64,000 bases of DNA from Thermoanaerobaculia bacterium (GTDB taxonomy: Bacteria; Acidobacteriota; Thermoanaerobaculia; Multivoradales; Multivoraceae). The position numbers and the translations under genes are program-made. The DNA lies in assembly GCA_965214805.1 (NCBI GenBank), contig OZ243982.1, positions 1,237,116 to 1,301,115 of the forward strand, written 5' to 3'. The notes below the pieces were generated by a model that saw only the letters and a list, made by a program, of their open reading frames with translations, searched no databases and was not told the DNA's origin. Shown one piece after another: positions 52,259 through 64,000 of the stretch; the stretch's first letter is position 1; every line of letters begins with the position of its first letter.

Positions 52259-54802
52259 ATGATCGTTCTGAAGTTCGGCGGCTCCTCCGTGGCCGATGCA
52301 TCCCGTCTCCTGGCCGCCGCCGGCATCGTGCGGCGGCGAGTCGGAGGCTCCGCGGCGAACGGCGCGGTGGTGGTTTCCGCCCTTGGCGGCGTCACGGACC
52401 GGCTGCTGCGGATGGCAGCCATTGCCCTGGATGGAGGGCATCCGGCTGAAGCGGCGCGCGAGTCGGCGGCACTGCGCGCACACCATCTGGACATCGCAGC
52501 ACAGGTAGCGGCCGAGGACGATCGACCGGCCCTGGCGGCCACGGTCGAGTCCCTCTGCGACGATCTTGCCGCGGCGGTGCGCAACTGCGCACCCGGCGCG
52601 GACAAGGAGGTCCGCTCGAAGGAGGCCCTGGTCGACCGGGTCGTCTGCCACGGCGAGCTCCTTTCGACCCAACTCCTGGCGGCCGCCCTGCGCACCGCCG
52701 GACTGCCCGCCGAGGCCTGCGACGCGCGTCCCCTGGTGTCGACGGACCGCTCGTTCCAGGCAGCAACGGTCGATCTGGAACCGACCCTGGACGCGATCGC
52801 CGTTCATTTCGGGAACCTCGGGCCCGAGGCTCCGCTGCAGGTCGTGACCGGCTTCCTGGGCAGCAGTCCGGACGGTCAGACCACGACCCTGGGGCGCAGC
52901 GGATCCGACCTCACCGCCTCGCTCGTCGGCGCAGCGGTCGATGCCGAGCGCATCGAGATCTGGACCGACGTTCCGGGGGTCATGACGGCCGACCCCCGAC
53001 GCGTGGAGGACGCGCTGCCGATACCGCGACTGAGCTACGAGGAGATGCTCGAACTCTCGCACTTCGGCGCCAAGGTGGTCTATCCGCCGACGGTGACGCC
53101 GGCGCGCCGCAGAGGCATTCCGCTGCTGATCCGCAACACTCTCGATCCCGAACACCCCGGAACCGTCATCGACGCCGGCGGCGAGATGAGGAAGCGAGCC
53201 CGCGGCACGGCAGTCACGGGCATCTCCTCGATCGACGACGTCCATCTGATGCTCCTGGTCGGCGACAATCTGGTCGGCACGCCGGGAGTCGCCGCGCGCC
53301 TCTTCGACGCCCTGGCCGCCTGCAGCGCCAGCGCGATCCTGATCTCCCAGGCCTCGAGCGAACACTCGATCTGCTTCGCGGTGGCGCCAGGCGTGTCCGA
53401 GGCGGTACGGCATGCCGTCGACGCCGAGTTCCAGGCCGAGATCGCGGCCGGGTCGGTGCGACCCCTGAGGGTCGAGCGGAACCAGTCGATCCTGGCCGTC
53501 GTCGGCGACGGCATGCGCGATCGGCCCGGCATCGCCGGTCGCGTCTTCGGCATCCTGGGCCGGCGCAGCGTCAACGTGAGGGCGGTAGCCCAGGGATCGT
53601 CGGAACGGAACATCTCGATGGTCGTGGCCCGAGCCGACGAGGGCCGGGCGGTGCGCTGGATCCACCGGGAGTTCTTTCATCGCGCCGCCTCCGGCCGGCT
53701 CGCCGTTTACGTGCTCGGCGTCGGCGGCGTAGGGTCGGCTCTCCTCCGGCAACTCGACGCCGAACGGGACGCGCTTGCGCGCCAGGGAGTCGATCTCCAG
53801 TTGCGGGGCCTGGCCAGTTCTCGCCACATGCGCCTCCAGGCCCGCCGCGGCAGGAGCCTCGATCCCGGCGGCGCCCGGGATCCCGAGGGTTGGCGGTCCA
53901 CGCTCGAGCGGAACGGCGAAACGGCGGACGTCGACCGACTGCTGGAACACCTCGGCGAAACCGCGGCCGGCGGCGGCCGTACCGTACTCGTCGACGTCAC
54001 GGCAAACGACTCCATGGGCGCCCTCTACCACCGCGTCCTCGCCGCCGGCGCCGCTGTCGCCAGTGCGAACAAGCTTCCCTTCGCCGGGCCGATCGCGGAC
54101 TTTCGCGCCTTCCGCCCGCCGGGCGCTCGGCACGTCTTCCACGAGGCGACCGTCGGCGCCGGCCTGCCGGTGCTCCACACCGCCGACATGCTGCTCGGCG
54201 CCGGCGACCGCATCGAACAGATATACGGCGTGTTCTCGGGCACGCTTGCCTATCTGACCGGGAAGCTCGGCGCCGGCAGCGTGTGGAGCGAAGCTGTCCG
54301 GGAGGCCCACAGCCTCGGCTACACGGAACCCGACCCCCGGGACGACTTGGGCGGCCTGGACGTGGCCCGCAAGCTGCTGATCCTGGCCCGGATCTGCGGC
54401 TGCGATCTCGATCTGGGCGACGTCGAGGTCGAGCCCATGCTCGACCGGCCCGACCTCGCCGGCCTGCCGCTGGACGCCTGGTGGGAGCGGCTTGCCGAAG
54501 CCGACGACGATATGGCGTCCCGTTTCGCCGAAGCCGCGTCGGAGGGGCTCGAACTCGTCTACCTGGCCGAACTGGATACCTCCGGCGAGACGGCCGCCGC
54601 CCGCGTCGGACTGCGCGCCGTGCGCTTTGACCATCCGGTCGCGGGGATGCAGGCTTCGGACAACATGTTCGTCTTTCGCAGTCGGCGCTATCGGGAGCGC
54701 CCTCTGGTGGTCCAGGGGCCGGGCGCCGGCGCCGAACTGACCGCGGGAGGCGTGTTCGCCGACATCCTCCGCGCCTGGACGGAGAGGGGATTCGCCCAAT
54801 GA
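52259..54802 (+). CDS. thrA: Bifunctional aspartokinase / homoserine dehydrogenase
   Basis: 847 aa; aspartokinase N-terminus (MIVLKFGGSSVAD), two ACT domains, C-terminal homoserine dehydrogenase (VYVLGVGGVGSALL NAD-binding site). Confidence 0.95.
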   Translation: MIVLKFGGSSVADASRLLAAAGIVRRRVGGSAANGAVVVSALGGVTDRLLRMAAIALDGGHPAEAARESAALRAHHLDIAAQVAAEDDRPALAATVESLCDDLAAAVRNCAPGADKEVRSKEALVDRVVCHGELLSTQLLAAALRTAGLPAEACDARPLVSTDRSFQAATVDLEPTLDAIAVHFGNLGPEAPLQVVTGFLGSSPDGQTTTLGRSGSDLTASLVGAAVDAERIEIWTDVPGVMTADPRRVEDALPIPRLSYEEMLELSHFGAKVVYPPTVTPARRRGIPLLIRNTLDPEHPGTVIDAGGEMRKRARGTAVTGISSIDDVHLMLLVGDNLVGTPGVAARLFDALAACSASAILISQASSEHSICFAVAPGVSEAVRHAVDAEFQAEIAAGSVRPLRVERNQSILAVVGDGMRDRPGIAGRVFGILGRRSVNVRAVAQGSSERNISMVVARADEGRAVRWIHREFFHRAASGRLAVYVLGVGGVGSALLRQLDAERDALARQGVDLQLRGLASSRHMRLQARRGRSLDPGGARDPEGWRSTLERNGETADVDRLLEHLGETAAGGGRTVLVDVTANDSMGALYHRVLAAGAAVASANKLPFAGPIADFRAFRPPGARHVFHEATVGAGLPVLHTADMLLGAGDRIEQIYGVFSGTLAYLTGKLGAGSVWSEAVREAHSLGYTEPDPRDDLGGLDVARKLLILARICGCDLDLGDVEVEPMLDRPDLAGLPLDAWWERLAEADDDMASRFAEAASEGLELVYLAELDTSGETAAARVGLRAVRFDHPVAGMQASDNMFVFRSRRYRERPLVVQGPGAGAELTAGGVFADILRAWTERGFAQ

Positions 54803-54899
54803 CCCTTGCCTGTCGAGCCGCCGTGGAACCTGTCGGACGATGCCTGCGCAGAGCGAACTGGACGGGCCACGGTGTCGACCGCAAGCCGCGCGCGCAGCC

Positions 54900-55973
54900 A
54901 TGACGACTCGAAGCGAGCTCCTGAGCGCCGCCGTGCTCGGCGCGACCGGCACCGTGGGCCAGCGGTTCGTCACCTTGCTGACCGGGCATCCCTGGTTCGA
55001 GTTGACCGCGCTGGCCGCATCCGAGCGTTCGGCGGGGAAGGCCTACCGCGACTCGGTCACCTGGATTCAGACCCGGCCGCTCGACGAACGGGTCGCGGCG
55101 CTGCCGGTGCACACGATCAACGAGCTGGCGGACCGCGACTTCGACGTCGTCTTCTCGGCCCTGGACGCCAGCGTGGCGAAGGACATCGAACCCGAGTTCG
55201 CCCGCCGCTGCCTGGTGGTCACGAACGCCAGCGCCCACCGCATGGACGAAGGCGTCCCGCTGCTCGTGCCCGAAGTGAATCCGGATCACCTCGCGCTGCT
55301 GCCCCCGGCCCGGGACGGCGCCGACCTGCCCAGCGGCATCATCGCCAACCCGAACTGTTCGACGATCGGGCTGGTGCTGGCGCTCAAGCCCCTGGCCGCC
55401 GCGTTCGGCTTCGACCGCATCTCCGTGGTCACCCTGCAGGCGGTATCCGGCGCCGGCCTGCCCGGCATCTCGAGCTACCAGATCCTGGACAACGTCATTC
55501 CCTGGATACCGAGCGAGGAGGAGAAGCTCGAGATCGAGACCGGGAAGATCCTGGGCCGCCTGAGAGGCGGCACGATCGAGCCGAGCCGGCTCGCGGTATC
55601 GGCCCAGTGCAACCGGATCCCCGTGGTCGACGGACACACCCTCTGCGTCTCGGTCGATCTGAAGGGTGAACCGACGCTCGAAGATGTCCGGGAGGCGTGG
55701 AGGTCGTTCCGCTCCGTGCCGCAGGAACTCGGCCTGCCGTCGGCGCCGGCGCAACCGATCGTGTATCTCGGCGACGACACCCCGCCGCAGGCGCGTCTGC
55801 ACCGTGACCTCGGCCAGGGCATGACGACTTCCATCGGACGGTTGCGCGAGTGCCCCATCCTCGGCTACCGCTTCGTAGCCCTGTCGCACAACACCCTGAG
55901 GGGCGCTGCGGGCGGGGCGCTGCTGGCCGCGGAACTCGCTGTCGCCCGTTGCGCCAGGCAGAGCGCCGAATGA
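54900..55973 (+). CDS. asd: Aspartate-semialdehyde dehydrogenase
   Basis: ATG at 54900 (MTTRSELLSAAVLGATGTVGQRF); active-site Cys in NPNCSTIGL. Confidence 0.9.
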   Translation: MTTRSELLSAAVLGATGTVGQRFVTLLTGHPWFELTALAASERSAGKAYRDSVTWIQTRPLDERVAALPVHTINELADRDFDVVFSALDASVAKDIEPEFARRCLVVTNASAHRMDEGVPLLVPEVNPDHLALLPPARDGADLPSGIIANPNCSTIGLVLALKPLAAAFGFDRISVVTLQAVSGAGLPGISSYQILDNVIPWIPSEEEKLEIETGKILGRLRGGTIEPSRLAVSAQCNRIPVVDGHTLCVSVDLKGEPTLEDVREAWRSFRSVPQELGLPSAPAQPIVYLGDDTPPQARLHRDLGQGMTTSIGRLRECPILGYRFVALSHNTLRGAAGGALLAAELAVARCARQSAE

Positions 55974-56965
55974 GCCGCTCGGCGAAGGCCTGGGCCCCGG
56001 CCTCGGTTTCGAACATCGCCTGCGGCTTCGACATCCTGGGATTCGCCCTGCAGTCGGGGAGCACCTGTACTTCCGGTCCGGGGGACGTGGTCACGGCGAC
56101 CGAACGCGAGGACGCGGAAGGCTGCCGCCCGGTCCGCATCACGGCCATTGCAGGCGACGACGGGCGGCTGCCGCTGCAGCCGAAGCGCAACACCGCCGCG
56201 GTCGCCGCCGCGGCGCTGATCGAGGCCGAAGCGCCTGGCGCCATCGTCGACCTGAAGCTGGAGAAACGCATGCCTCTCGAGAGCGGCCTCGGTTCGAGCG
56301 CCGCCAGCGCGGTGGCCGCAGTCGTCGCGGTCGACGCGCTGCTGGGCCTTGCCCTGCCGCCGGCGGCTCTGCTTCGGTACGCGCTTGCCGGGGAGATTCT
56401 GGCCAGCGGCGGCGCCCACGCGGACAACCTGGCCCCCTCCCTCCTTGGCGGCATCGTCCTGGTCCGTTCGCTGGACCCGAAACCGGATGTGGTCACGCTG
56501 CCAGTGCCCGAAGGTCTGACCTGCGCGCTTGCCCGCCCCCATACCCGGGTCAATACCTGCGAATCGCGCGCCCGGCTCGGCCGCCATCTGCCGCTTGGGC
56601 GCGCGGTGACCCAGTGGGGAAACGCCGCGGCTCTGGTGGCGTCTCTCTACCGCAACGACCTGGAGCTGCTTTCACGTTCCCTTGTCGACGTGGTCGCCGA
56701 GCCTGTCCGGGGACCGTACGTGGCCGGATTCCACGAAGCGAAGAGGGCTGCGATCGAATCCGGCGCCCTCGGTTGCAGTCTGTCCGGCAGCGGCCCGGCC
56801 CTGTTCGCTCTCTGCGACGGCAGGGACCGCGGCCGGGAGGTCGCGACGGCGATGGCGACGGCCATCGAGAAAGCGGCCGGGGTCGAATGCGACCGGCTCG
56901 TGTCGCCGCTCCCAGCCCCGGGGGCCCGGTTCATCGACGACCGCGACGAGGAAGAACGGTCCTGA
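55970..56965 (+). CDS. thrB: Homoserine kinase (GHMP family)
   Basis: ATG at 55970 overlapping the asd stop (ATGA); GHMP motif PLESGLGSSAASAVAAV. Confidence 0.85.
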   Translation: MSRSAKAWAPASVSNIACGFDILGFALQSGSTCTSGPGDVVTATEREDAEGCRPVRITAIAGDDGRLPLQPKRNTAAVAAAALIEAEAPGAIVDLKLEKRMPLESGLGSSAASAVAAVVAVDALLGLALPPAALLRYALAGEILASGGAHADNLAPSLLGGIVLVRSLDPKPDVVTLPVPEGLTCALARPHTRVNTCESRARLGRHLPLGRAVTQWGNAAALVASLYRNDLELLSRSLVDVVAEPVRGPYVAGFHEAKRAAIESGALGCSLSGSGPALFALCDGRDRGREVATAMATAIEKAAGVECDRLVSPLPAPGARFIDDRDEEERS

Positions 56966-56967
56966 GC

Positions 56968-58299
56968 GTGCGATTCGTGAGCACCGGCGGGCAGGCGCCG
57001 GCGGCCACGCTGGGCCAGGCGCTGCTCGAGGGCCCGGCCCCGGACGGGGGCCTGTACGTGCCCGCGCGCCTGAAGGCACTGACGGCAGAACAGATGGACC
57101 AGCTGAAGTCCATGCCCCTGATCGGCATCGCGAGCATCCTCGGCGGCCGCCTGTTCGGCGCCGAGGTACCGGAAGACGAACTCGCCGCACTGGTCGAAGA
57201 CGCCCTCGACTTTCCCATCCCCCTCATCGAGATCGAACCGGACATCTTCTGCCTGGAGCTGTTCCACGGACCGACGCTGGCATTCAAGGACATAGCTGCG
57301 CGGGTCATGGCTCGGCTCATGTCGCGCCTGGTCGAGGCCGACGACGCGGCCGGCGGCCCGCCCATCACCGTCGTCGCGGCGACCAGCGGCGACACCGGCA
57401 GCGCGGTAGCCCATGCATTCAGCGGCGTCGCCGGCTTCCGGGTCTGCGTGCTCTACCCGCGGGGACTCGTGACCGAAGCCCAGCGTCGACTGTTCACGAC
57501 CCTCGGCGGCAACGTGACCGCGGTCGCCGTCGCGGGGACATTCGACGACTGCCAGCGGCTCGCCCGGGCCGCGTTCGCGGACCGGGCGCTGCGGCAACTG
57601 CGGCCTCTCGCTTCCGCCAACTCGCTCAACGTCGGCCGGCTGCTGCCGCAGGTCTTCTACTACTTTCACGCTTGGGCGCAGCTGCCCCCGGCGCCATCCG
57701 CCGACTCGGCCACCCCGCTGGTCTTCTCGATCCCCAGCGGCAACTTCGGCAATCTGACTGCCGGCCTCGTCGCCAGACGGATCGGTCTTCCCGTTTCCCG
57801 CTTCGTCGCGGCCACCAACATCAACGACGTGGTGCCCGCGTACCTGCAAAGCGGCCTCTACGCGCCCCGCGCTTCGGCCGCCACGATCTCGAACGCGATG
57901 GACGTGGGCGATCCGAGCAACTTCGCCCGCATTCGTCATCTGTACTCGGACCGAGGCGATCCCCTGGAAGCCCTTCGCCGCGACCTGGCGGGCCGCTCTT
58001 TCGACGATCGGACCACACGGCGCGCGATGCGCGGCATGCGGGAGAACCACGGCTACCTCATGGACCCGCACACGGCGGTCGGCTACCTCGGCCTGAAGCA
58101 GGAACTCGACGCCCTGGGCGGCGGCATCGGAGTCGTGCTGGCAACGGCGCATCCGGCAAAGTTCGACGACGTGATCCGTGACGTCATCGGCATCGCGCCG
58201 CCTGTTCCAACCGCGCTCGAGCGCTGCGCCGACCTGCCCGAGCGGATCATCGAGATTCCGGCAGCGGATCAGGCTCTGCGAGAGGTTCTGCTCGCGTAG
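56968..58299 (+). CDS. thrC: Threonine synthase (PLP-dependent)
   Basis: GTG at 56968, 3 nt after the thrB stop (VRFVSTGGQAPAATLGQALLEGPAPDGGLYVP); PLP-lysine context FHGPTLAFKD. Confidence 0.9.
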   Translation: MRFVSTGGQAPAATLGQALLEGPAPDGGLYVPARLKALTAEQMDQLKSMPLIGIASILGGRLFGAEVPEDELAALVEDALDFPIPLIEIEPDIFCLELFHGPTLAFKDIAARVMARLMSRLVEADDAAGGPPITVVAATSGDTGSAVAHAFSGVAGFRVCVLYPRGLVTEAQRRLFTTLGGNVTAVAVAGTFDDCQRLARAAFADRALRQLRPLASANSLNVGRLLPQVFYYFHAWAQLPPAPSADSATPLVFSIPSGNFGNLTAGLVARRIGLPVSRFVAATNINDVVPAYLQSGLYAPRASAATISNAMDVGDPSNFARIRHLYSDRGDPLEALRRDLAGRSFDDRTTRRAMRGMRENHGYLMDPHTAVGYLGLKQELDALGGGIGVVLATAHPAKFDDVIRDVIGIAPPVPTALERCADLPERIIEIPAADQALREVLLA

Positions 58300-58399: not shown

Positions 58400-59488
58400 T
58401 CAGCCCGGTGACCGGGACCTGGCACGACCGGGATCCAGGGGCGTGCAGACGAACCCGGTCCGTTCTCGAGAGCGGCTGACGGAGCCGCGGTCCCGGTCCG
58501 ACGGAGTGACGAGCTGACCCTCCACCTCCAACCCTGACGGCACATGAACCCCTGGCGCCACGACGGTCTCCCGCAGACAGGCCGCCGCACCCACCCGAGC
58601 GCCAGGCATCAGTACACTCCGCTCCACCAGCGCACCAGCGCCCAGGCGGCAGCCGCTTTCGACCACGCTGTGTTCGATGACCGCGCCGCGCTCCGCCGCC
58701 ACACCCGGCGCCAGGTAGCGGCGGCGCCTTCTGCGGCCGCCGGCGCTGCGGCCCCAGTCGAGCGCCCCGTCCAGGTAGCGGCGCGGGGTGCCCAGGTCGT
58801 GCCAGCGGCGACGGCAGCCAAAGCCGACGATCCGGGCCCCTGATTCCAGCAGGGGCTGGTAGAGACCCTCGACGATGTCGCTGGAGGCCAGGCGCCCGGG
58901 AATGGCGTCGAGGAGGACCCGGCGCGACAGGACGTGCAGACCCTGAAAGGTCCGCTTGCGGCCGCGAACAGAGCCGATCCCAAGGTCGCGGAGCCCGGTG
59001 ACGATCCCCCGGCTGTCGACCTCCACGCCGCCGCCAAGACGCCGGTTCGGTGCATCGCGGCCAAGCTGCAGGGTCACGTCGGCGCCGCTTCGCCGGTGGC
59101 GGGCCAGCGCGTCGAGGATCGGCCAGCGGCACAGCGAGTCGCCGTTGACCAGGACGATGTCGTCGCCTTCGACCAGGAAGTCGCGCAGATTGACGACCGC
59201 TCCCAGGGTTCCCAGCAACTCCGGCTCGACGGCGAAGGTCAGCTCGATTCCCCGTTCACCGGCCTCGGCCTCCAGGGCACGCCTCACAGACCCTGCCAGA
59301 TGGTGCAGGTTGACCGCCGTCTCGCAGCCGGCACGATGGAGGATGTCGATCGTGCGCATGGCCACCGGGCGGCCGGCAACGGGGAGAAGCGGCTTGGCCA
59401 GCAAGTCGGTCAGAGGCCGCAGACGCTCGCCCCGCCCGGCGCAGAGCACGAGCGCCCGCACCCGCGAACCACTCCGAACGCCCGTCAT
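58400..59488 (-). CDS. Sugar-phosphate nucleotidyltransferase (NTP_transferase domain plus C-terminal left-handed beta-helix; mannose-1-P guanylyltransferase / GlmU-N-like)
   Basis: 362 aa from ATG at 59488; ALVLCAGRGERLRPLTDLLAKPLLPV is the G-x-G-T/E-R-L nucleotide-binding signature; hexapeptide-repeat C-terminus. Confidence 0.8.
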   Translation of the reverse strand: MTGVRSGSRVRALVLCAGRGERLRPLTDLLAKPLLPVAGRPVAMRTIDILHRAGCETAVNLHHLAGSVRRALEAEAGERGIELTFAVEPELLGTLGAVVNLRDFLVEGDDIVLVNGDSLCRWPILDALARHRRSGADVTLQLGRDAPNRRLGGGVEVDSRGIVTGLRDLGIGSVRGRKRTFQGLHVLSRRVLLDAIPGRLASSDIVEGLYQPLLESGARIVGFGCRRRWHDLGTPRRYLDGALDWGRSAGGRRRRRRYLAPGVAAERGAVIEHSVVESGCRLGAGALVERSVLMPGARVGAAACLRETVVAPGVHVPSGLEVEGQLVTPSDRDRGSVSRSRERTGFVCTPLDPGRARSRSPG

Positions 59489-60081
59489 CAGCCGCCCCGA
59501 GGAAAGACCATGTCCCGCGGCAGATCGGGCCACATCTTCCTGCGGGCGCGATAGAGAGCCAGGTAGTCCTCCGGCACGGAACGCTCGACGTCGAGGCCGC
59601 AGCGCCTGCAGACATCCCTGATCCCCTCCCCGACCCGGTCGGCCGGCAATTCGCCTCCGAGTTCCTCCACCTCGACGAAGCGGCCCACGGGCGTCGTGTC
59701 GAGAGACACCTCGCAGCCAAGCAGACGCCAAGTCTCCCGCACCTTCTCGTACCGCACCGCGACCCCGTACCCCAGTGACTCCAGCAGCAGCCGTGCGGCG
59801 TCCAGGTCGTCCACCGCGATCTCGTGTTCCAGCCGCTCCTTCACGCCGTCCACGAAGCGAGGGGCCGACTTGAAGGTCAGCCGGTTTCCGGCGCCGTCGG
59901 AACGCAGGCGCAACAGCTCGCTGCGGGAGCGAAGACGTTGCTCCACAGGCGCGTCGACCAGGTCGAACACCAGGTTCGACTCGAGACTTGCAGGCCGTTG
60001 CAGATCTGCTCCCGCACGCCGCAGCCGTTCCCGGACGGCATCCAGGTCGGCGACCGGGATCTTGACTTCGCGCTCGTTCAA
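59488..60081 (-). CDS. CYTH-domain protein (CyaB/thiamine-triphosphatase-like triphosphate tunnel metalloenzyme)
   Basis: 197 aa; N-terminal EVKIPV (ExExK-type), the beta-barrel tunnel pattern with conserved acidic/basic residues, and LEHEIAV; its stop shares its A with the downstream ATG (TGATG) and its start overlaps the M20 stop. Confidence 0.75.
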   Translation of the reverse strand: MNEREVKIPVADLDAVRERLRRAGADLQRPASLESNLVFDLVDAPVEQRLRSRSELLRLRSDGAGNRLTFKSAPRFVDGVKERLEHEIAVDDLDAARLLLESLGYGVAVRYEKVRETWRLLGCEVSLDTTPVGRFVEVEELGGELPADRVGEGIRDVCRRCGLDVERSVPEDYLALYRARRKMWPDLPRDMVFPRGG

Positions 60082-61493
60082 GCGCCGGAGCGGACGGGGC
60101 TCTCCCCGCAGTCCCCGAGGCGATCGAGGACCCGGACCACGGTGCGAATGCCCTGGTGGAAATTGACCAGGTCCATCTTCTCGTTCGGCGCGTGCAAGCG
60201 GTCGTCCGAGAGCCCGAACCCGACCAGCAGGACCGGCGCTGCGAGTACCTCCGACAACGTCGAGACGATCGGAATCGAACCCCCCTCCCGGACCCGGACC
60301 GGCGCCCGGCCCCAGGCCTCCCGGATGCCCTCGAGAGCCGCATCGACGAGCGGTCCTTCAAGGTCCACGAGCACCGGCGGCGCGCCGTTCAGATTCTCCA
60401 CCTCCACCTCGATGCCGGGAGGCGCCAGCGAACGCATGTACGCCGCGAAGGCGGAAAACAGCCTCTCCGGTTCCTGGTCGGGCACGAGCCGCATGGACAC
60501 CTTGGCGCCGGCGCGGTTGGCGATCACGGTCTTGGCTCCCGGACCCTGGTAGCCGCCCCACATCCCGTTCACGTCGCAGGTCGGACGCGCCCAGACCCTC
60601 TCCAGGGTCGTGTAGCCCGCCTCGCCCCACAGGGCGGTCGCACCGATCTCGTCGCCGTACTTCTCTTCGTCGAAGGGCAGTGCGGCGAAGGCGTCACGTT
60701 CTTCGGCGCCCAAAGGCCGCACGTCGTCGTAGAAGCCGGGGATCAGAATCCGCCCGTCCACCGGATCGCGCAGCGCCGCCAGCATCGTTCCCAGGACATT
60801 CAGCGGATTCGCCACGGCGCCGCCGAAGGTGCCGGAGTGAAGGTCCCGTCCCGCCCCGCGCACCCTGACCTCGGTGTAGAGCAGTCCTTTCAGGCCGTAG
60901 AGAACGGACGGCTGGCCGGGTCCGTACATCGACGTATCGGAGACCAACGCCAGGTCGCAGACGAGCCGCTCGTGTGCCGGACTCCTCACGTACGCCTCGA
61001 TCGCTTCGCCGCCGCACTCCTCCTCGCCCTCGATGAGGAACTTCACGTTGACCGGCAGGCTGCCGGTCTCCGTCATCAAGGCCTCGACCGCCTTGATGTG
61101 GGTGAACGACTGGCCCTTGTCGTCCGTGGCGCCGCGGGCCACGATCCGCTCGCCGCGCTCGCCGGTCTCGATGGTCGGCTCGAACGGATCGTTGCGCCAT
61201 TCGTTCAGGGGGTCTACCGGCTGCACGTCGTAGTGGCCGTAGAAGAGAACGGTCGGCCGCCCAGGCGCCCCGAGCCACTCGCCGTAGACCAGAGGATGGC
61301 CTGCGGTCTCGATGATCTCGGCGTCCAGCCCCGCGGTCCGGAGCCGCTCCCGCACGAACTCGGCGCAGCGCCGCACATCTCCGGCGTACGCGGGATCCGT
61401 CGACACGGAGGGGATCCGCAGGTACTCCTTCAACTGTTCGACGCTGGCCCCGGACTCCCGGTCCACGCGCTCCAGAACAGCATCGATACTCAC
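60078..61493 (-). CDS. M20-family metallopeptidase (dipeptidase/ArgE/DapE/CPG2-like)
   Basis: 471 aa; metal-ligand motifs GHYDVQP, ARGATDDKG and EGEEECGG, plus the dimerisation-domain insert. Confidence 0.9.
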   Translation of the reverse strand: MSIDAVLERVDRESGASVEQLKEYLRIPSVSTDPAYAGDVRRCAEFVRERLRTAGLDAEIIETAGHPLVYGEWLGAPGRPTVLFYGHYDVQPVDPLNEWRNDPFEPTIETGERGERIVARGATDDKGQSFTHIKAVEALMTETGSLPVNVKFLIEGEEECGGEAIEAYVRSPAHERLVCDLALVSDTSMYGPGQPSVLYGLKGLLYTEVRVRGAGRDLHSGTFGGAVANPLNVLGTMLAALRDPVDGRILIPGFYDDVRPLGAEERDAFAALPFDEEKYGDEIGATALWGEAGYTTLERVWARPTCDVNGMWGGYQGPGAKTVIANRAGAKVSMRLVPDQEPERLFSAFAAYMRSLAPPGIEVEVENLNGAPPVLVDLEGPLVDAALEGIREAWGRAPVRVREGGSIPIVSTLSEVLAAPVLLVGFGLSDDRLHAPNEKMDLVNFHQGIRTVVRVLDRLGDCGESPVRSGA

Positions 61494-61511
61494 GGGACGG
61501 TCCTGTTGCGG

Positions 61512-62168
61512 TCAGTCATCGAAGCTGCGGCCTGTCTTCTCCCAGTCCGACAGGAACCGGTTCAGTCCGCTGTCCGTCAAGGGATGCCGATAGAGCTGGC
61601 TCAGGATCCTGAACGGCAGGGTGATGACGTCCGCGCCCATCTCCGCCGACAGCACGACGTGCACAGGATGGCGCGCGGAAGCAACCAGGATCTCGGTCTC
61701 GAAATCGTACTGCGAGTAGATCGCAACGACCTGCCGGATCAGACCCATGCCGTCCTGGGCGATGTCGTCGAGCCGACCGACGAAGGGGGATACGTAGGCA
61801 GCCCCCGCCTTCGCCGCCAGCAGAGCCTGCGACGGCGAGAAGCAGAGCGTCACGTTGCAGCGGATGCCTTCGGCGGCAAGACGCTGCACGGCCGTCAGTC
61901 CGGGCGGGCCGAGCGGCACCTTGACCACCACGTTGTCGGCGAGCCCGGCGAGCCGGCGCCCCTGGTCGAGCATGCCTTCGAGATCGACGGCGAGAACCTC
62001 ACCGCTCACCGGGCCGGGCGTCAGTTCGGCGATTTCGCGAACCGTCGGCAGGTACGGCTTGCCCTGCTTCGCGATCAGGCTCGGGTTGGTCGTGACGCCG
62101 TCGACCATGCCCCATTCGAGGCCGGTCTCGATCTCCCCGATGTCAGCGGTGTCAAGAAAGAACTTCAT
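61512..62168 (-). CDS. fsa: Fructose-6-phosphate aldolase / transaldolase (Fsa/TalC subfamily)
   Basis: 218 aa; MKFFLDTADIGEI and the Schiff-base lysine in VVVKVPLGP; short-type Tal/Fsa length. Confidence 0.88.
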   Translation of the reverse strand: MKFFLDTADIGEIETGLEWGMVDGVTTNPSLIAKQGKPYLPTVREIAELTPGPVSGEVLAVDLEGMLDQGRRLAGLADNVVVKVPLGPPGLTAVQRLAAEGIRCNVTLCFSPSQALLAAKAGAAYVSPFVGRLDDIAQDGMGLIRQVVAIYSQYDFETEILVASARHPVHVVLSAEMGADVITLPFRILSQLYRHPLTDSGLNRFLSDWEKTGRSFDD

Positions 62169-62189: not shown

Positions 62190-64000
62190 TCAATTGATCG
62201 GCTCCGAGTTTGCAACCGTCGCCGCCTCGGCCCCGGAGGCGCCGTTCTCATCATCCTCCTCGCCACGATCCGGTATCCGGGCCAGGGCGACGATACGGTC
62301 GCCGTCCTCGAGGTCCATCACCTTGACGCCCTGGGTTGCGCGCCCGATACGGGACACGCTGCCAGCGCTGATGCGGATGATCTTCCCCTGGTGCGTGATC
62401 AGCATCAGACCCGTGTCATCCGTCACCTCGCGCACACCTACCACGGCTCCGGTCCGATCGGACACCTTGAGGTTGATGATGCCCAGGCCTCCCCGGGACT
62501 GGCGGCGGTACTCCCCGAGCGATGTCCGCTTGCCGAAGCCGTTCTCGCTGACCGTAAGCAGAGTCGTCACCGGCGACCGAGGTTCGTCGGCCTCGACCGT
62601 CGAGGGCAGCAGACACTCCATCGACACGACCCGGTCGCCGCGGCGAAGACCGATCCCGCGCACACCCCGGGTGACCCGGCCGAGAGAGCGCAGGTCGCTC
62701 TCGGGGAACCGGACCGAATAGCCCATTCGTGTCGCCAGCACCAGGTCACTGCCGCCGTCCGTGACCTTGACCGCAAGCAGATGATCGCCTTCGTCGATTC
62801 GGACCGCGATTATTCCTCCGGCACGGGAGCGCGAGTAGTGGGCCAGGGATGTCTTCTTCACCACGCCGGCTTCCGTGGCGAAGGTCAGGAACCGGTCTTC
62901 CGGGAACTCCCGCACGGCGGCCGTGGCGGCGACCGTTTCGCCGCTTTCGAGCTGCAGCAGATTGACGATCGCCTTGCCCCGGGCCGCCGGACCCATCTGG
63001 GGGATCTGGTGCGCCTTGAGCCAGTAGCAGTGGCCCCGGTCGGTGAACACGAGGACGTGGCTGTGGGCGGAAGCGACGTGGAGCTGCTCCACGAAGTCGC
63101 CGTCCCTGGTCGCCATGCCGGTTCTGCCCTTGCCGCCGCGATGCTGGGCCCGGTACAGGCTGAGCGGCGAGCGCTTGACGTAGCCCGACCGCGTCACGGT
63201 GATGACCATCTCCTCGTCCGCGATCATGTCCTCGATCGTGATGTCCGAGGAGTGATCCACGATCTCGGTGCGGCGCGGATCGCTGTAACGCTTCTCGATG
63301 GCGTCGAGCTCGCCCCGGATCTCGGCCAGCAGCAGTGCGTCCGACCCCAGAATGGCGCGCAGCCGGCCAATCTCGGCGATCAGGTCCGCGTACTCGGCCT
63401 CTATCTTCTCGCGCTCCAGTCCGGTCAACCGCTGCAGGCGCATGTCGAGGATCGCCCGCGCCTGGGGTTCGGTCAGGGCGAAGTCCTCGATCAGCCGCAT
63501 CCGGGCCTCCGGCGGTGTCTGGCTGGCGCGGATCGCTGCGATCACCTCGTCGATGTGATCGAGAGCGATGAGCAGACCCTCGAGCACATGGGCGCGCTGC
63601 TCCGCACGCGCCAACTCGTAGCGGCAGCGCCGGATGACGACCGTGCGGCGGTGGTCCAGGAAGTGGCGCAGCAGGTCGTGCAGCGTCAGCACCTGGGGCT
63701 GGTTGTCGACGATCGCCAGCATGTTCATGCCGTAGGTGACCTGGAGCCTGGTCATCTTGTAGAGCATGTTCAGGATGACCTCGGCCACCTCGCCCCGCTT
63801 CAGGTCGATCACGATGCGGATACCGTCGCGATCGGATTCGTCGCGCAGATCGCGGATACCTCCGAGCTTCTTTTCGCGGACCAGTTCGGCGATCCGTTCG
63901 ATCAGCCGCGCCTTGTTCACCTGGTAGGGAACCTCGGAAACGATGATCGACTGGGAGTCCGAACTTCTGTCCTCGATGTCGGCGCGGGCACGCACCTGGA
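62190..64000 (-). CDS. gyrA: DNA gyrase subunit A, C-terminal ~600 aa (gene continues past the window end)
   Basis: Tower/coiled-coil region and C-terminal beta-pinwheel blades with a GyrA-box-like AQHRGGKGRTG (QRRGGKG) that distinguishes GyrA from ParC; no stop before coordinate 64000 in this frame. Confidence 0.88.
   Translation of the reverse strand, partial: QVRARADIEDRSSDSQSIIVSEVPYQVNKARLIERIAELVREKKLGGIRDLRDESDRDGIRIVIDLKRGEVAEVILNMLYKMTRLQVTYGMNMLAIVDNQPQVLTLHDLLRHFLDHRRTVVIRRCRYELARAEQRAHVLEGLLIALDHIDEVIAAIRASQTPPEARMRLIEDFALTEPQARAILDMRLQRLTGLEREKIEAEYADLIAEIGRLRAILGSDALLLAEIRGELDAIEKRYSDPRRTEIVDHSSDITIEDMIADEEMVITVTRSGYVKRSPLSLYRAQHRGGKGRTGMATRDGDFVEQLHVASAHSHVLVFTDRGHCYWLKAHQIPQMGPAARGKAIVNLLQLESGETVAATAAVREFPEDRFLTFATEAGVVKKTSLAHYSRSRAGGIIAVRIDEGDHLLAVKVTDGGSDLVLATRMGYSVRFPESDLRSLGRVTRGVRGIGLRRGDRVVSMECLLPSTVEADEPRSPVTTLLTVSENGFGKRTSLGEYRRQSRGGLGIINLKVSDRTGAVVGVREVTDDTGLMLITHQGKIIRISAGSVSRIGRATQGVKVMDLEDGDRIVALARIPDRGEEDDENGASGAEAATVANSEPIN

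Follow-up and report, generated by a model that had tools for sequence, protein, structure and literature searches.

The window analysed here is a 64,000-nucleotide stretch of a Thermoanaerobaculia bacterium (GenBank assembly GCA_965214805.1, contig OZ243982.1, positions 1,237,116 to 1,301,115 of the forward strand), with a G+C content of about 69%. On its minus strand, three genes joined by overlapping stop and start codons encode an M20 metallodipeptidase, a standalone CYTH protein of the triphosphate tunnel metalloenzyme (TTM) type, and a protein of the kind named nucleoside diphosphate (NDP)-sugar synthase, in which a nucleotidyltransferase domain is followed by a left-handed beta-helix (LbH). 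These genes belong to a vertically inherited, origin-proximal housekeeping operon, dnaN-gyrB-gyrA-fsa-M20-CYTH-NTP (NTP being the transferase gene), as can be read directly from its gene order, its overlaps and its conservation. The persistent core of this operon is the pair formed by CYTH and the NDP-sugar synthase, ancestrally with a gene for a Gph/PpaX-like HAD phosphatase behind it. The chances are about even that the conserved operon holds, in this CYTH-transferase(-HAD) core, a group of genuinely linked functions.

Conservation of the operon in the Acidobacteriota

A search for homologues of the CYTH protein returned 286 sequences. The genome scan relied on the narrower of two CYTH alignments (A2), the broad one (A1) being too diverse, and covered one genome per species. 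It yielded 80 loci, all labelled Acidobacteriota and mostly belonging to Thermoanaerobaculia or 'Ca. Multivorans', whose neighbouring genes were called by tblastn and by our own gene calls. The transferase gene lies directly downstream of CYTH in 79 of the 80 loci, and the M20 gene directly upstream in 75. Across these loci, the identity to the window proteins is 38-80% for CYTH, 31-85% for the transferase and, over the 75 loci that have it, 61-93% for M20.

The window clade, which comprises 35 loci, has the order gyrB>gyrA>fsa>M20>CYTH>NTP> thrC<, and the wider class the order ...M20>CYTH>NTP>HAD>. A relative with a 60%-identical CYTH protein presents the identical dnaN-gyrB-gyrA-fsa-M20-CYTH-NTP | thrC order, and a Thermoanaerobaculia relative at 45% identity carries M20-CYTH-NTP-HAD between other flanks, with a peptidase gene and a PIN/RHH pair upstream. 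The pairing, which the sequence-only reading of the window had singled out as unfamiliar, is thus present in relatives, including loci in which the M20-CYTH-NTP unit stands away from gyrA and fsa (L004, L058, L066 and L071). The same reading had described a unit of three genes; the order of these genes holds, while a usual fourth gene, that for the HAD phosphatase, had been missed, since it is absent in the window clade.

The longer flanks of L001 and L002:1-5914 show that the block opens with dnaN > gyrB > gyrA, a region that usually flanks the chromosomal replication origin.

M20, CYTH and the transferase co-diverge, with pairwise-distance correlations of r = 0.89-0.97, which points to their joint vertical inheritance. 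Mirror-tree style co-evolution was dropped as evidence for a CYTH-NTP link, given that all three proteins follow one phylogeny.

A second genomic context in a sister lineage

Five of the 80 loci (L062, L069, L082, L083 and L090) lack both M20 and HAD. Their CYTH proteins are 40-47% identical to both main subgroups, being approximately as distant from them as these subgroups are from each other. The transferase of this sister lineage (NTP') reaches 163-172 bits against the profile of the main family and falls under hundreds of unlinked homologues (200-245 bits), for which reason it has been assigned to a different transferase subfamily. A metagenome scan with the sister CYTH group recovered 80 soil loci (L094-L173), of which 65 have room downstream. 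In 61 of these 65, a gene with a GatB/YqeY domain is followed by CYTH, by NTP' and by a pseudopilin-like gene on the opposite strand.

The pairing of CYTH with an NDP-sugar synthase is therefore found in two genomic contexts that are unrelated, each with its own transferase subfamily, M20 and HAD being specific to one of them. This double occurrence provides the strongest argument for a functional link between CYTH and the transferase, and for M20 as a passenger.

Functional link or shared inheritance

It is also possible, if somewhat short of an even chance, that nothing beyond synteny unites these genes. Unrelated housekeeping functions (a pentose-phosphate enzyme, a dipeptidase, a 'house-cleaning' enzyme for triphosphate (PPPi) and an envelope sugar-nucleotide enzyme) would then sit in a conserved, highly expressed block adjacent to dnaN-gyrB-gyrA, and would be kept there by inheritance and shared transcription. 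If so, the locus would be an ordinary lineage-specific operon.

Several observations fit that explanation and weigh against a functionally linked core. The order gyrB>gyrA>fsa>M20>CYTH>NTP is syntenic in most loci, and much of the conservation belongs to this whole origin-proximal block, common descent explaining part of it. Each of the two contexts may likewise trace back to one ancestral arrangement. No connection is known between the three chemistries, and the proposed link between CYTH and the transferase through PPPi or pyrophosphate (PPi) is drawn from the properties of their families. Partial distance correlations (0.29 for CYTH and NTP given M20; 0.86 for NTP and M20 given CYTH) are uninformative and give no specific CYTH-NTP signal. 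No CYTH-transferase fusion appears among the 120 best matches listed per protein search, and in the window's own clade the operon has lost its HAD gene. These genomes are tightly packed in general: stop/start overlaps are common in the window, and in the sister lineage the unrelated YqeY gene also abuts CYTH (as in L094, 4965/4965). In five sister-lineage loci (L083:1441-2400, L105, L123, L126 and L127), CYTH occurs without NTP' and has the pseudopilin-like gene directly next to it. Finally, 36-48%-identical CYTH homologues from other lineages, outside the phylum, have unrelated neighbours, with neither M20 nor a transferase adjacent. In view of the last three points, the coupling cannot be called obligate, as the sequence-only reading had it.

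Synteny as the sole explanation is in turn opposed by the fact that M20-CYTH-NTP(-HAD) is also found detached from gyrA and fsa, between other flanks, that the adjacency of CYTH and a nucleotidyltransferase is kept in a second context with another transferase subfamily, and that the arrangement persists at a divergence down to about 40% identity. These are the observations on which a functionally linked core depends.

The CYTH protein, a predicted triphosphatase

The CYTH protein passes the gathering cutoff of PF01928 (37.4 bits against 23.2). The profile of its family finds SaTTM from Sulfolobus acidocaldarius as best match (PDB 7ns8, E = 1.3e-19), followed by Pyrococcus CYTH proteins and by the class IV adenylate cyclase (AC-IV) of Yersinia pestis. 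Its AlphaFold2 (AF2) model (pLDDT 94.4) has the eight-stranded beta-barrel tunnel fold and superposes best on ligand-bound SaTTM (TM-score 0.77-0.86, root-mean-square deviation 2.2 Å); the top 30 Foldseek matches are all TTM/CYTH structures. Residues E3, E5, K7, R58, R60, K71, E85, E87, K113, R115, D128, E137 and E139 are invariant in 21 homologues.

Three determinants have been published that distinguish AC-IV enzymes from triphosphatases (Vogt et al. 2021, PMC8233210). In the cyclases, an HF motif is placed four residues ahead of ExExK (HFxxxxExExK), a small residue stands in place of the first Arg of xRxR, and Ala in place of the second Glu of ExE. The window protein begins with M-N-E-R-E-V-K, where only M-N precedes E3 and HF is absent, as it also is from relatives with a longer N-terminus. 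The first Arg of xRxR (R58) and the second Glu of ExE (E139) are both kept and invariant. Because there is no room for HF, and the other two motifs read LLR58LR60 and E137-V-E139, the protein is predicted from its sequence and model to be a triphosphatase-type TTM, with the full catalytic set and no determinant of adenylate cyclases. Thiamine triphosphatases are recognised by an aromatic residue in a W/YxRxR motif (PMC8233210). This position is occupied here by an invariant leucine (Leu56), and a thiamine triphosphatase was ruled out on that ground.

In public records (NCBI, JGI), relatives of the window CYTH protein appear under the names 'class IV adenylate cyclase', 'CyaB' or 'adenylate cyclase class 2'. 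These names are probably a mis-annotation, since the clade fails all three published determinants. Little is known about what CYTH/TTM proteins do physiologically, and many of them have been mis-annotated as adenylate cyclases (PMC8233210); the locus is a clear case of the label 'class IV adenylate cyclase' failing the published determinants across a whole clade.

It is accordingly very improbable that CYTH acts as a class IV adenylate cyclase whose cyclic AMP (with PPi) regulates the production of sugar nucleotides or exopolysaccharide. The names given to the relatives would agree with such a role, as would TIGR00318 (cyaB) being the best NCBIfam match and the Y. pestis AC-IV appearing among the top folds, and a Vibrio AC-IV has been linked to capsule production (bioRxiv 10.1101/2022.06.06.495059). 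However, all three determinants fail, the TIGR00318 score stays under its cutoff (43.3 bits against 57.95), and in both sequence and structure the protein is closest to SaTTM, an enzyme that forms no cyclic nucleotide.

Outside the Acidobacteriota, the nearest CYTH genes are of the Desulfovibrionales type (L006, L010, L092 and L091). They recur in the arrangements cheB>CYTH>clpS-clpA-aat, the last three being genes of N-end-rule proteolysis, and cheB>CYTH>AOR, with AOR for aldehyde:ferredoxin oxidoreductase. Other CYTH genes outside the phylum stand in the order hypD>CYTH>clpS, or alone.

The transferase, a GMPPB-like protein without the EKP motif

The transferase passes PF00483 (77.9 bits against a cutoff of 21.2), and its C-terminus, a short GlmU-like hexapeptide region, matches PF24894 with 38.8 bits. 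The profile of its family finds human GMPPB (7d72) with E = 2e-55, and its AF2 model (pLDDT 88.3) has tlr0611, GMPPA/B and VTC1 as best folds, and also ADP-glucose pyrophosphorylases. The best NCBIfam match is NF052502, a model of mycobacterial mannose-1-phosphate guanylyltransferase (140.4 bits, cutoff 440). MurU (NF045761) follows with 81.1 bits (cutoff 250), and the GlmU models give at most 37.5 bits (cutoffs 367-725); GlmU, RmlA, GlgC and inositol-phosphate cytidylyltransferase models all score far under those of mannose-1-phosphate guanylyltransferase and MurU. None of the curated NCBIfam cutoffs is reached. As to the type of nucleotidyltransferase, which the sequence-only reading had left among several options, the architecture is GMPPB/ManC-like, and not that of GlmU, MurU or an inositol-phosphate cytidylyltransferase, in a protein that lacks the EKP lysine.

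Residues G18, G20, R22, P25 and K32 and the metal-binding D117 (NGD) and D231 (WHDLGTP) are invariant. The position of the EKP motif, which reads FVEKP in GMPPB, VEKP in Leishmania GDP-MP, VEKP in VTC1 and QEKP in tlr0611, is LRDLG in the window protein and variable across the family, an EKP-less state shared by none of these solved structures (MurU was not checked on this point). How rare this state is was examined with a profile search run exhaustively over 1.84 billion cluster representatives. The family proper amounts to about 45 clusters above 300 bits, after which the scores form a plateau at 200-245 bits, whose members nearly all lack EKP and share an NLHH motif. Around 130 of the approximately 140 nearest 50%-identity cluster representatives are without the EKP lysine, and for this reason its loss was rejected as a peculiarity of the CYTH-linked transferase. 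The only family-specific signature of the latter is NGDSLCxWP. From its sequence and model, the transferase is apparently an active, non-canonical NDP-sugar pyrophosphorylase within a large uncharacterised clade.

Two-domain 'NDP-sugar synthases' make up this clade, which extends over thousands of 50%-identity clusters; they are EKP-less and have the motifs NLHH and F(A/T)G(V/A)H(V/I)L in common.

The MurU match raises the alternative of a peptidoglycan or amino-sugar salvage pathway, in which a MurU-like uridylyltransferase, activating a recycled sugar-1-phosphate anew, would be accompanied by a MupP-like HAD that dephosphorylates the 6-phosphate precursor and by M20 degrading the released peptide. 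Among NCBIfam models, MurU indeed ranks second for the N-terminal domain (81 bits), the family profile finds MurU structures with 98-119 bits, HAD matches the MupP model weakly (50 bits), and in E. coli the recycling of murein peptides involves M20 dipeptidases. Nevertheless, this pathway is improbable, because the scores are far under their cutoffs (81 against 250 for MurU; 50 against 359 for MupP), the transferase adds a C-terminal LbH to what in MurU is a single domain of about 225 amino acids and matches GMPPB better, and the loci examined contain neither an AmgK-type anomeric kinase nor any other recycling gene. In addition, it offers no role for CYTH, and M20 and HAD are missing in the sister lineage.

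The M20 dipeptidase and the HAD phosphatase

The M20 protein passes the 'dipeptidase' (PRK08201) equivalog NF006053 (538.2 bits against a cutoff of 441) and carries the catalytic domain PF01546 and the dimerisation domain PF07687. Its nearest PDB entries are 2zof, 4mmo and 4g1p, the closest solved structures being CNDP2, Dug1 and Sulfolobus CP2. It evolves more slowly than its downstream partners, with a mean pairwise distance of 0.25 against 0.42 and 0.43 over 44 loci. The sequence-only reading had suggested that it might share a pathway with the other two enzymes. It is the weakest candidate for such a pathway, since it is missing in the sister lineage that keeps CYTH and a transferase, evolves much more slowly and is a general dipeptidase of the CNDP2/Dug1 type; most likely, it is a housekeeping enzyme that is co-expressed as a passenger and stands outside the pathway. 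The fsa gene adjoins M20 throughout the window clade and at many loci of the wider class, and elsewhere it is often separated from M20 or absent.

The HAD protein is a HAD-IA phosphatase similar to Gph, PpaX and MupP, under all cutoffs, whose nearest PDB entries are AlnB and phosphoglycolate phosphatases. Its gene is present in 37 of 39 wider-class loci, directly downstream of the transferase gene in 30 of them, and in none of the 31 analysable loci of the window clade; no HAD homologue was found anywhere within the 64-kb window. One example is L004:9651-10286, and 30 further loci (L046-L089) provide others.

Gene junctions and neighbouring features

The minus-strand order gyrA, fsa/tal, M20, CYTH and transferase has successive gaps of 21, 18, -4 and -1 nt (Table 1). 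Read base by base, the M20 gene ends in GCT-TGA and CYTH begins at the TTG of gcTTGAac; CYTH in turn ends in GGC-TGA and the transferase gene begins at the ATG of cTGATGac, base 59488 being common to both. The two overlaps given by the sequence-only reading (60078-60081 and 59488) are in this way borne out. TTG is the sole possible start of CYTH, since it is the only start codon past the preceding in-frame stop and the ExExK motif is already found at residues 3-7. The stop codon of fsa/tal occupies 61512-61514 and the GTG of M20 starts at 61493, which leaves 18 nt between them instead of the 19 nt first reported, and fsa/tal itself starts 21 nt past the end of gyrA. The claim of co-translation is well founded to the extent that the genes form a compact unit, presumably co-transcribed and translationally coupled.

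Table 1. Features of the operon in the window, with positions counted from the first base of the window.
Feature	Position	Strand	Basis or remark
gyrA	62190..63995	-	Open reading frame continues beyond window edge
fsa/talC-type transaldolase / fructose-6-phosphate aldolase	61512..62168	-	TIGR00875 282.8 bits (cutoff 245.95); PF00923; first gene after gyrA
fsa-M20 spacer, 18 nt	61494..61511	-	AGGA 7 nt ahead of GTG; plausible Shine-Dalgarno
M20A-type metallodipeptidase (CNDP2/Dug1/Sso-CP2-like), 471 aa, GTG start	60078..61493	-	NF006053; PF01546 + PF07687
TTGA, CYTH TTG start / M20 TGA stop, 4-nt overlap	60078..60081	-	Sequence reading
Standalone CYTH / TTM, 197 aa, predicted triphosphatase type	59488..60081	-	PF01928; SaTTM profile match; AF2 model; invariant catalytic residues
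ExExK motif (E3, E5, K7)	60061..60075	-	Two residues ahead of motif; no space for HF motif
R58-L59-R60 of LLRLR	59902..59910	-	Both Arg present, as in TTM type; no aromatic two positions ahead, hence not thiamine triphosphatase type
E137-V-E139, ExE metal-binding motif	59665..59673	-	Second Glu kept; Ala in class IV cyclases
TGATG, CYTH stop / transferase ATG, 1-nt overlap	59488..59488	-	Last stop base is first ATG base
NDP-sugar pyrophosphorylase-like protein ('NDP-sugar synthase'), 362 aa	58400..59488	-	N-terminal nucleotidyltransferase domain + C-terminal LbH
Nucleoside triphosphate-binding signature A17-G-R-G-E-R-L-R-P-L-T...K32	59393..59440	-	G18, G20, R22, P25, K32 invariant in family
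Hexapeptide-repeat (LbH) C-terminal domain, residues ~262-326	58511..58705	-	PF24894 + PF25084 matches; beta-strand ladder in AF2 model

How unusual such junctions are was evaluated with a simple gene caller of our own, based on G+C content at third codon positions, which gave 39 same-strand neighbour pairs in the window. Six of the 39 overlap by 4 or 1 nt, and 18 are spaced between -40 and +20 nt. In 41 of 69 analysable loci, the M20/CYTH overlap of 4 nt provides the most-upstream usable start (ATGA in 19, TTGA in 21 and GTGA in 1), and in 36 of 78 relatives CYTH and the transferase gene meet in a -4 or -1 junction, the remainder having mostly spacers of up to 40 nt. Stop/start overlaps by themselves are ordinary, and mark operon membership and probable translational coupling, nothing further. 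The non-trivial part is the evolutionary persistence of the gene arrangement, and not the overlaps.

Downstream, thrC is encoded on the opposite strand and ends at 58299, convergent with the transferase gene. It closes a threonine-pathway operon (52259-58299, plus strand) that also encodes a bifunctional aspartokinase/homoserine dehydrogenase, asd and thrB, names that were assigned via synteny with locus L002. In locus L011, the 3' ends of the transferase gene and thrC appear to overlap by about 45 nt.

Other kinds of element were also considered. Searches inside the M20-CYTH-transferase unit revealed neither an Rfam family nor a consensus promoter or terminator, and the spacer of 100 nt between the convergent transferase and thrC genes folds no better than shuffled sequence (z = 0.08). 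A riboswitch, an internal promoter and a terminator were rejected on this basis. A defence system or mobile element was discarded as well, as M20, CYTH and the transferase have no PADLOC match and the locus is core, origin-proximal and vertically inherited.

A possible role for the core

The transferase would be expected to convert a nucleoside triphosphate and a sugar-1-phosphate into an NDP-sugar and PPi. CYTH, judging by the properties of its family, would hydrolyse PPPi to PPi and Pi, or remove the gamma-phosphate of nucleoside triphosphates. CYTH and, where present, HAD may thus act on the phosphoanhydride or the phospho-sugar side of the transferase reaction, either by clearing PPPi or PPi, which the transferase would otherwise mis-use or be inhibited by, or by trimming its phospho-sugar precursor. 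Some NDP-sugar pyrophosphorylases can use PPPi in the reverse reaction and form nucleoside tetraphosphates, a possible rationale for a co-expressed PPPi-hydrolysing enzyme (PPPase). Such management of PPPi/PPi or of the precursor is plausible because SaTTM-like enzymes prefer PPPi and are inhibited by PPi, as reported for SaTTM (PMC8233210), and metabolite proofreading has been proposed as the task of specific PPPases (PMC3440374). The sequence-only reading had suggested an uncharacterised nucleotide or sugar-nucleotide pathway. This is a reasonable, if tentative, interpretation.

A stronger proposal would make CYTH and the EKP-less NDP-sugar synthase a dedicated pair of enzymes, perhaps bound to each other in a complex and joined in the ancestral state by HAD, in which the TTM, by hydrolysing triphosphate or nucleoside triphosphates, controls or drives the synthesis of an activated sugar. 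We consider it unlikely. If true, it would give a bacterial SaTTM-like CYTH protein a defined role in physiology for the first time, and would likewise assign a first substrate within the very large uncharacterised clade of 'NDP-sugar synthases'. In any case, the partnership of a TTM and an NDP-sugar synthase, with or without HAD, offers a modest, testable lead on TTM physiology.

Comparison with known systems

All four proteins belong to known superfamilies, and the operon is lineage-specific. No description of a pairing of CYTH with a nucleotidyltransferase or pyrophosphorylase in an operon was found in the literature searched, which did not cover the CYTH neighbourhood analysis of Iyer & Aravind 2002.

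For the CYTH protein, SaTTM (Saci_0718; PDB 7ns8-7nsf) is the closest system, by profile as well as by fold. Both are standalone proteins of about 190 amino acids, with ExExK, xRxR and ExE in the triphosphatase configuration. They differ in that one is bacterial and the other archaeal, with an identity of only about 22%, and the window protein, unlike SaTTM, has an extra loop (residues ~141-150, of low pLDDT) and a conserved C-terminal PxDMVFP tail. Terms for operon or gene neighbourhood are absent from the text of the SaTTM paper (PMC8233210). The CyaB class IV cyclases, such as Y. pestis YpAC-IV (2fjt, 3n0y), have their fold, size and 'parental' sequence cluster in common with SaTTM-like proteins. 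In contrast to them, the window protein is without HF, has retained both the gate-keeper Arg and the ExE motif's second Glu, and scores under the cutoff of TIGR00318.

The transferase has the same two-domain build, a nucleotidyltransferase with a short LbH, as GMPPB, VTC1, Leishmania GDP-MP and the cyanobacterial CugP-type UDP-glucose pyrophosphorylase tlr0611. It shares with them the GxGxRLxPLT...K loop, the Asp of NGD and the Asp of WxDxGTP, and the folds agree with TM-scores of 0.70-0.77. On the other hand, the proteins are about 21-28% identical, variable residues stand in place of the (V/Q)EKP motif with its sugar-phosphate-binding Lys, and 'NAG/NTG' is changed to 'FAG/FQG'.

With regard to the operon, the known CYTH systems (CYTH-CHAD proteins such as ygiF, the plant uridine-kinase-TTM1/2 and the polyphosphate operons) also place a tunnel enzyme beside nucleotide or phosphoanhydride metabolism, which has been proposed as the general theme of the CYTH superfamily (PMC8233210). 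Unlike those systems, the operon in the window contains no CHAD, kinase, PPK or PPX partner, and an NDP-sugar pyrophosphorylase takes that place instead.

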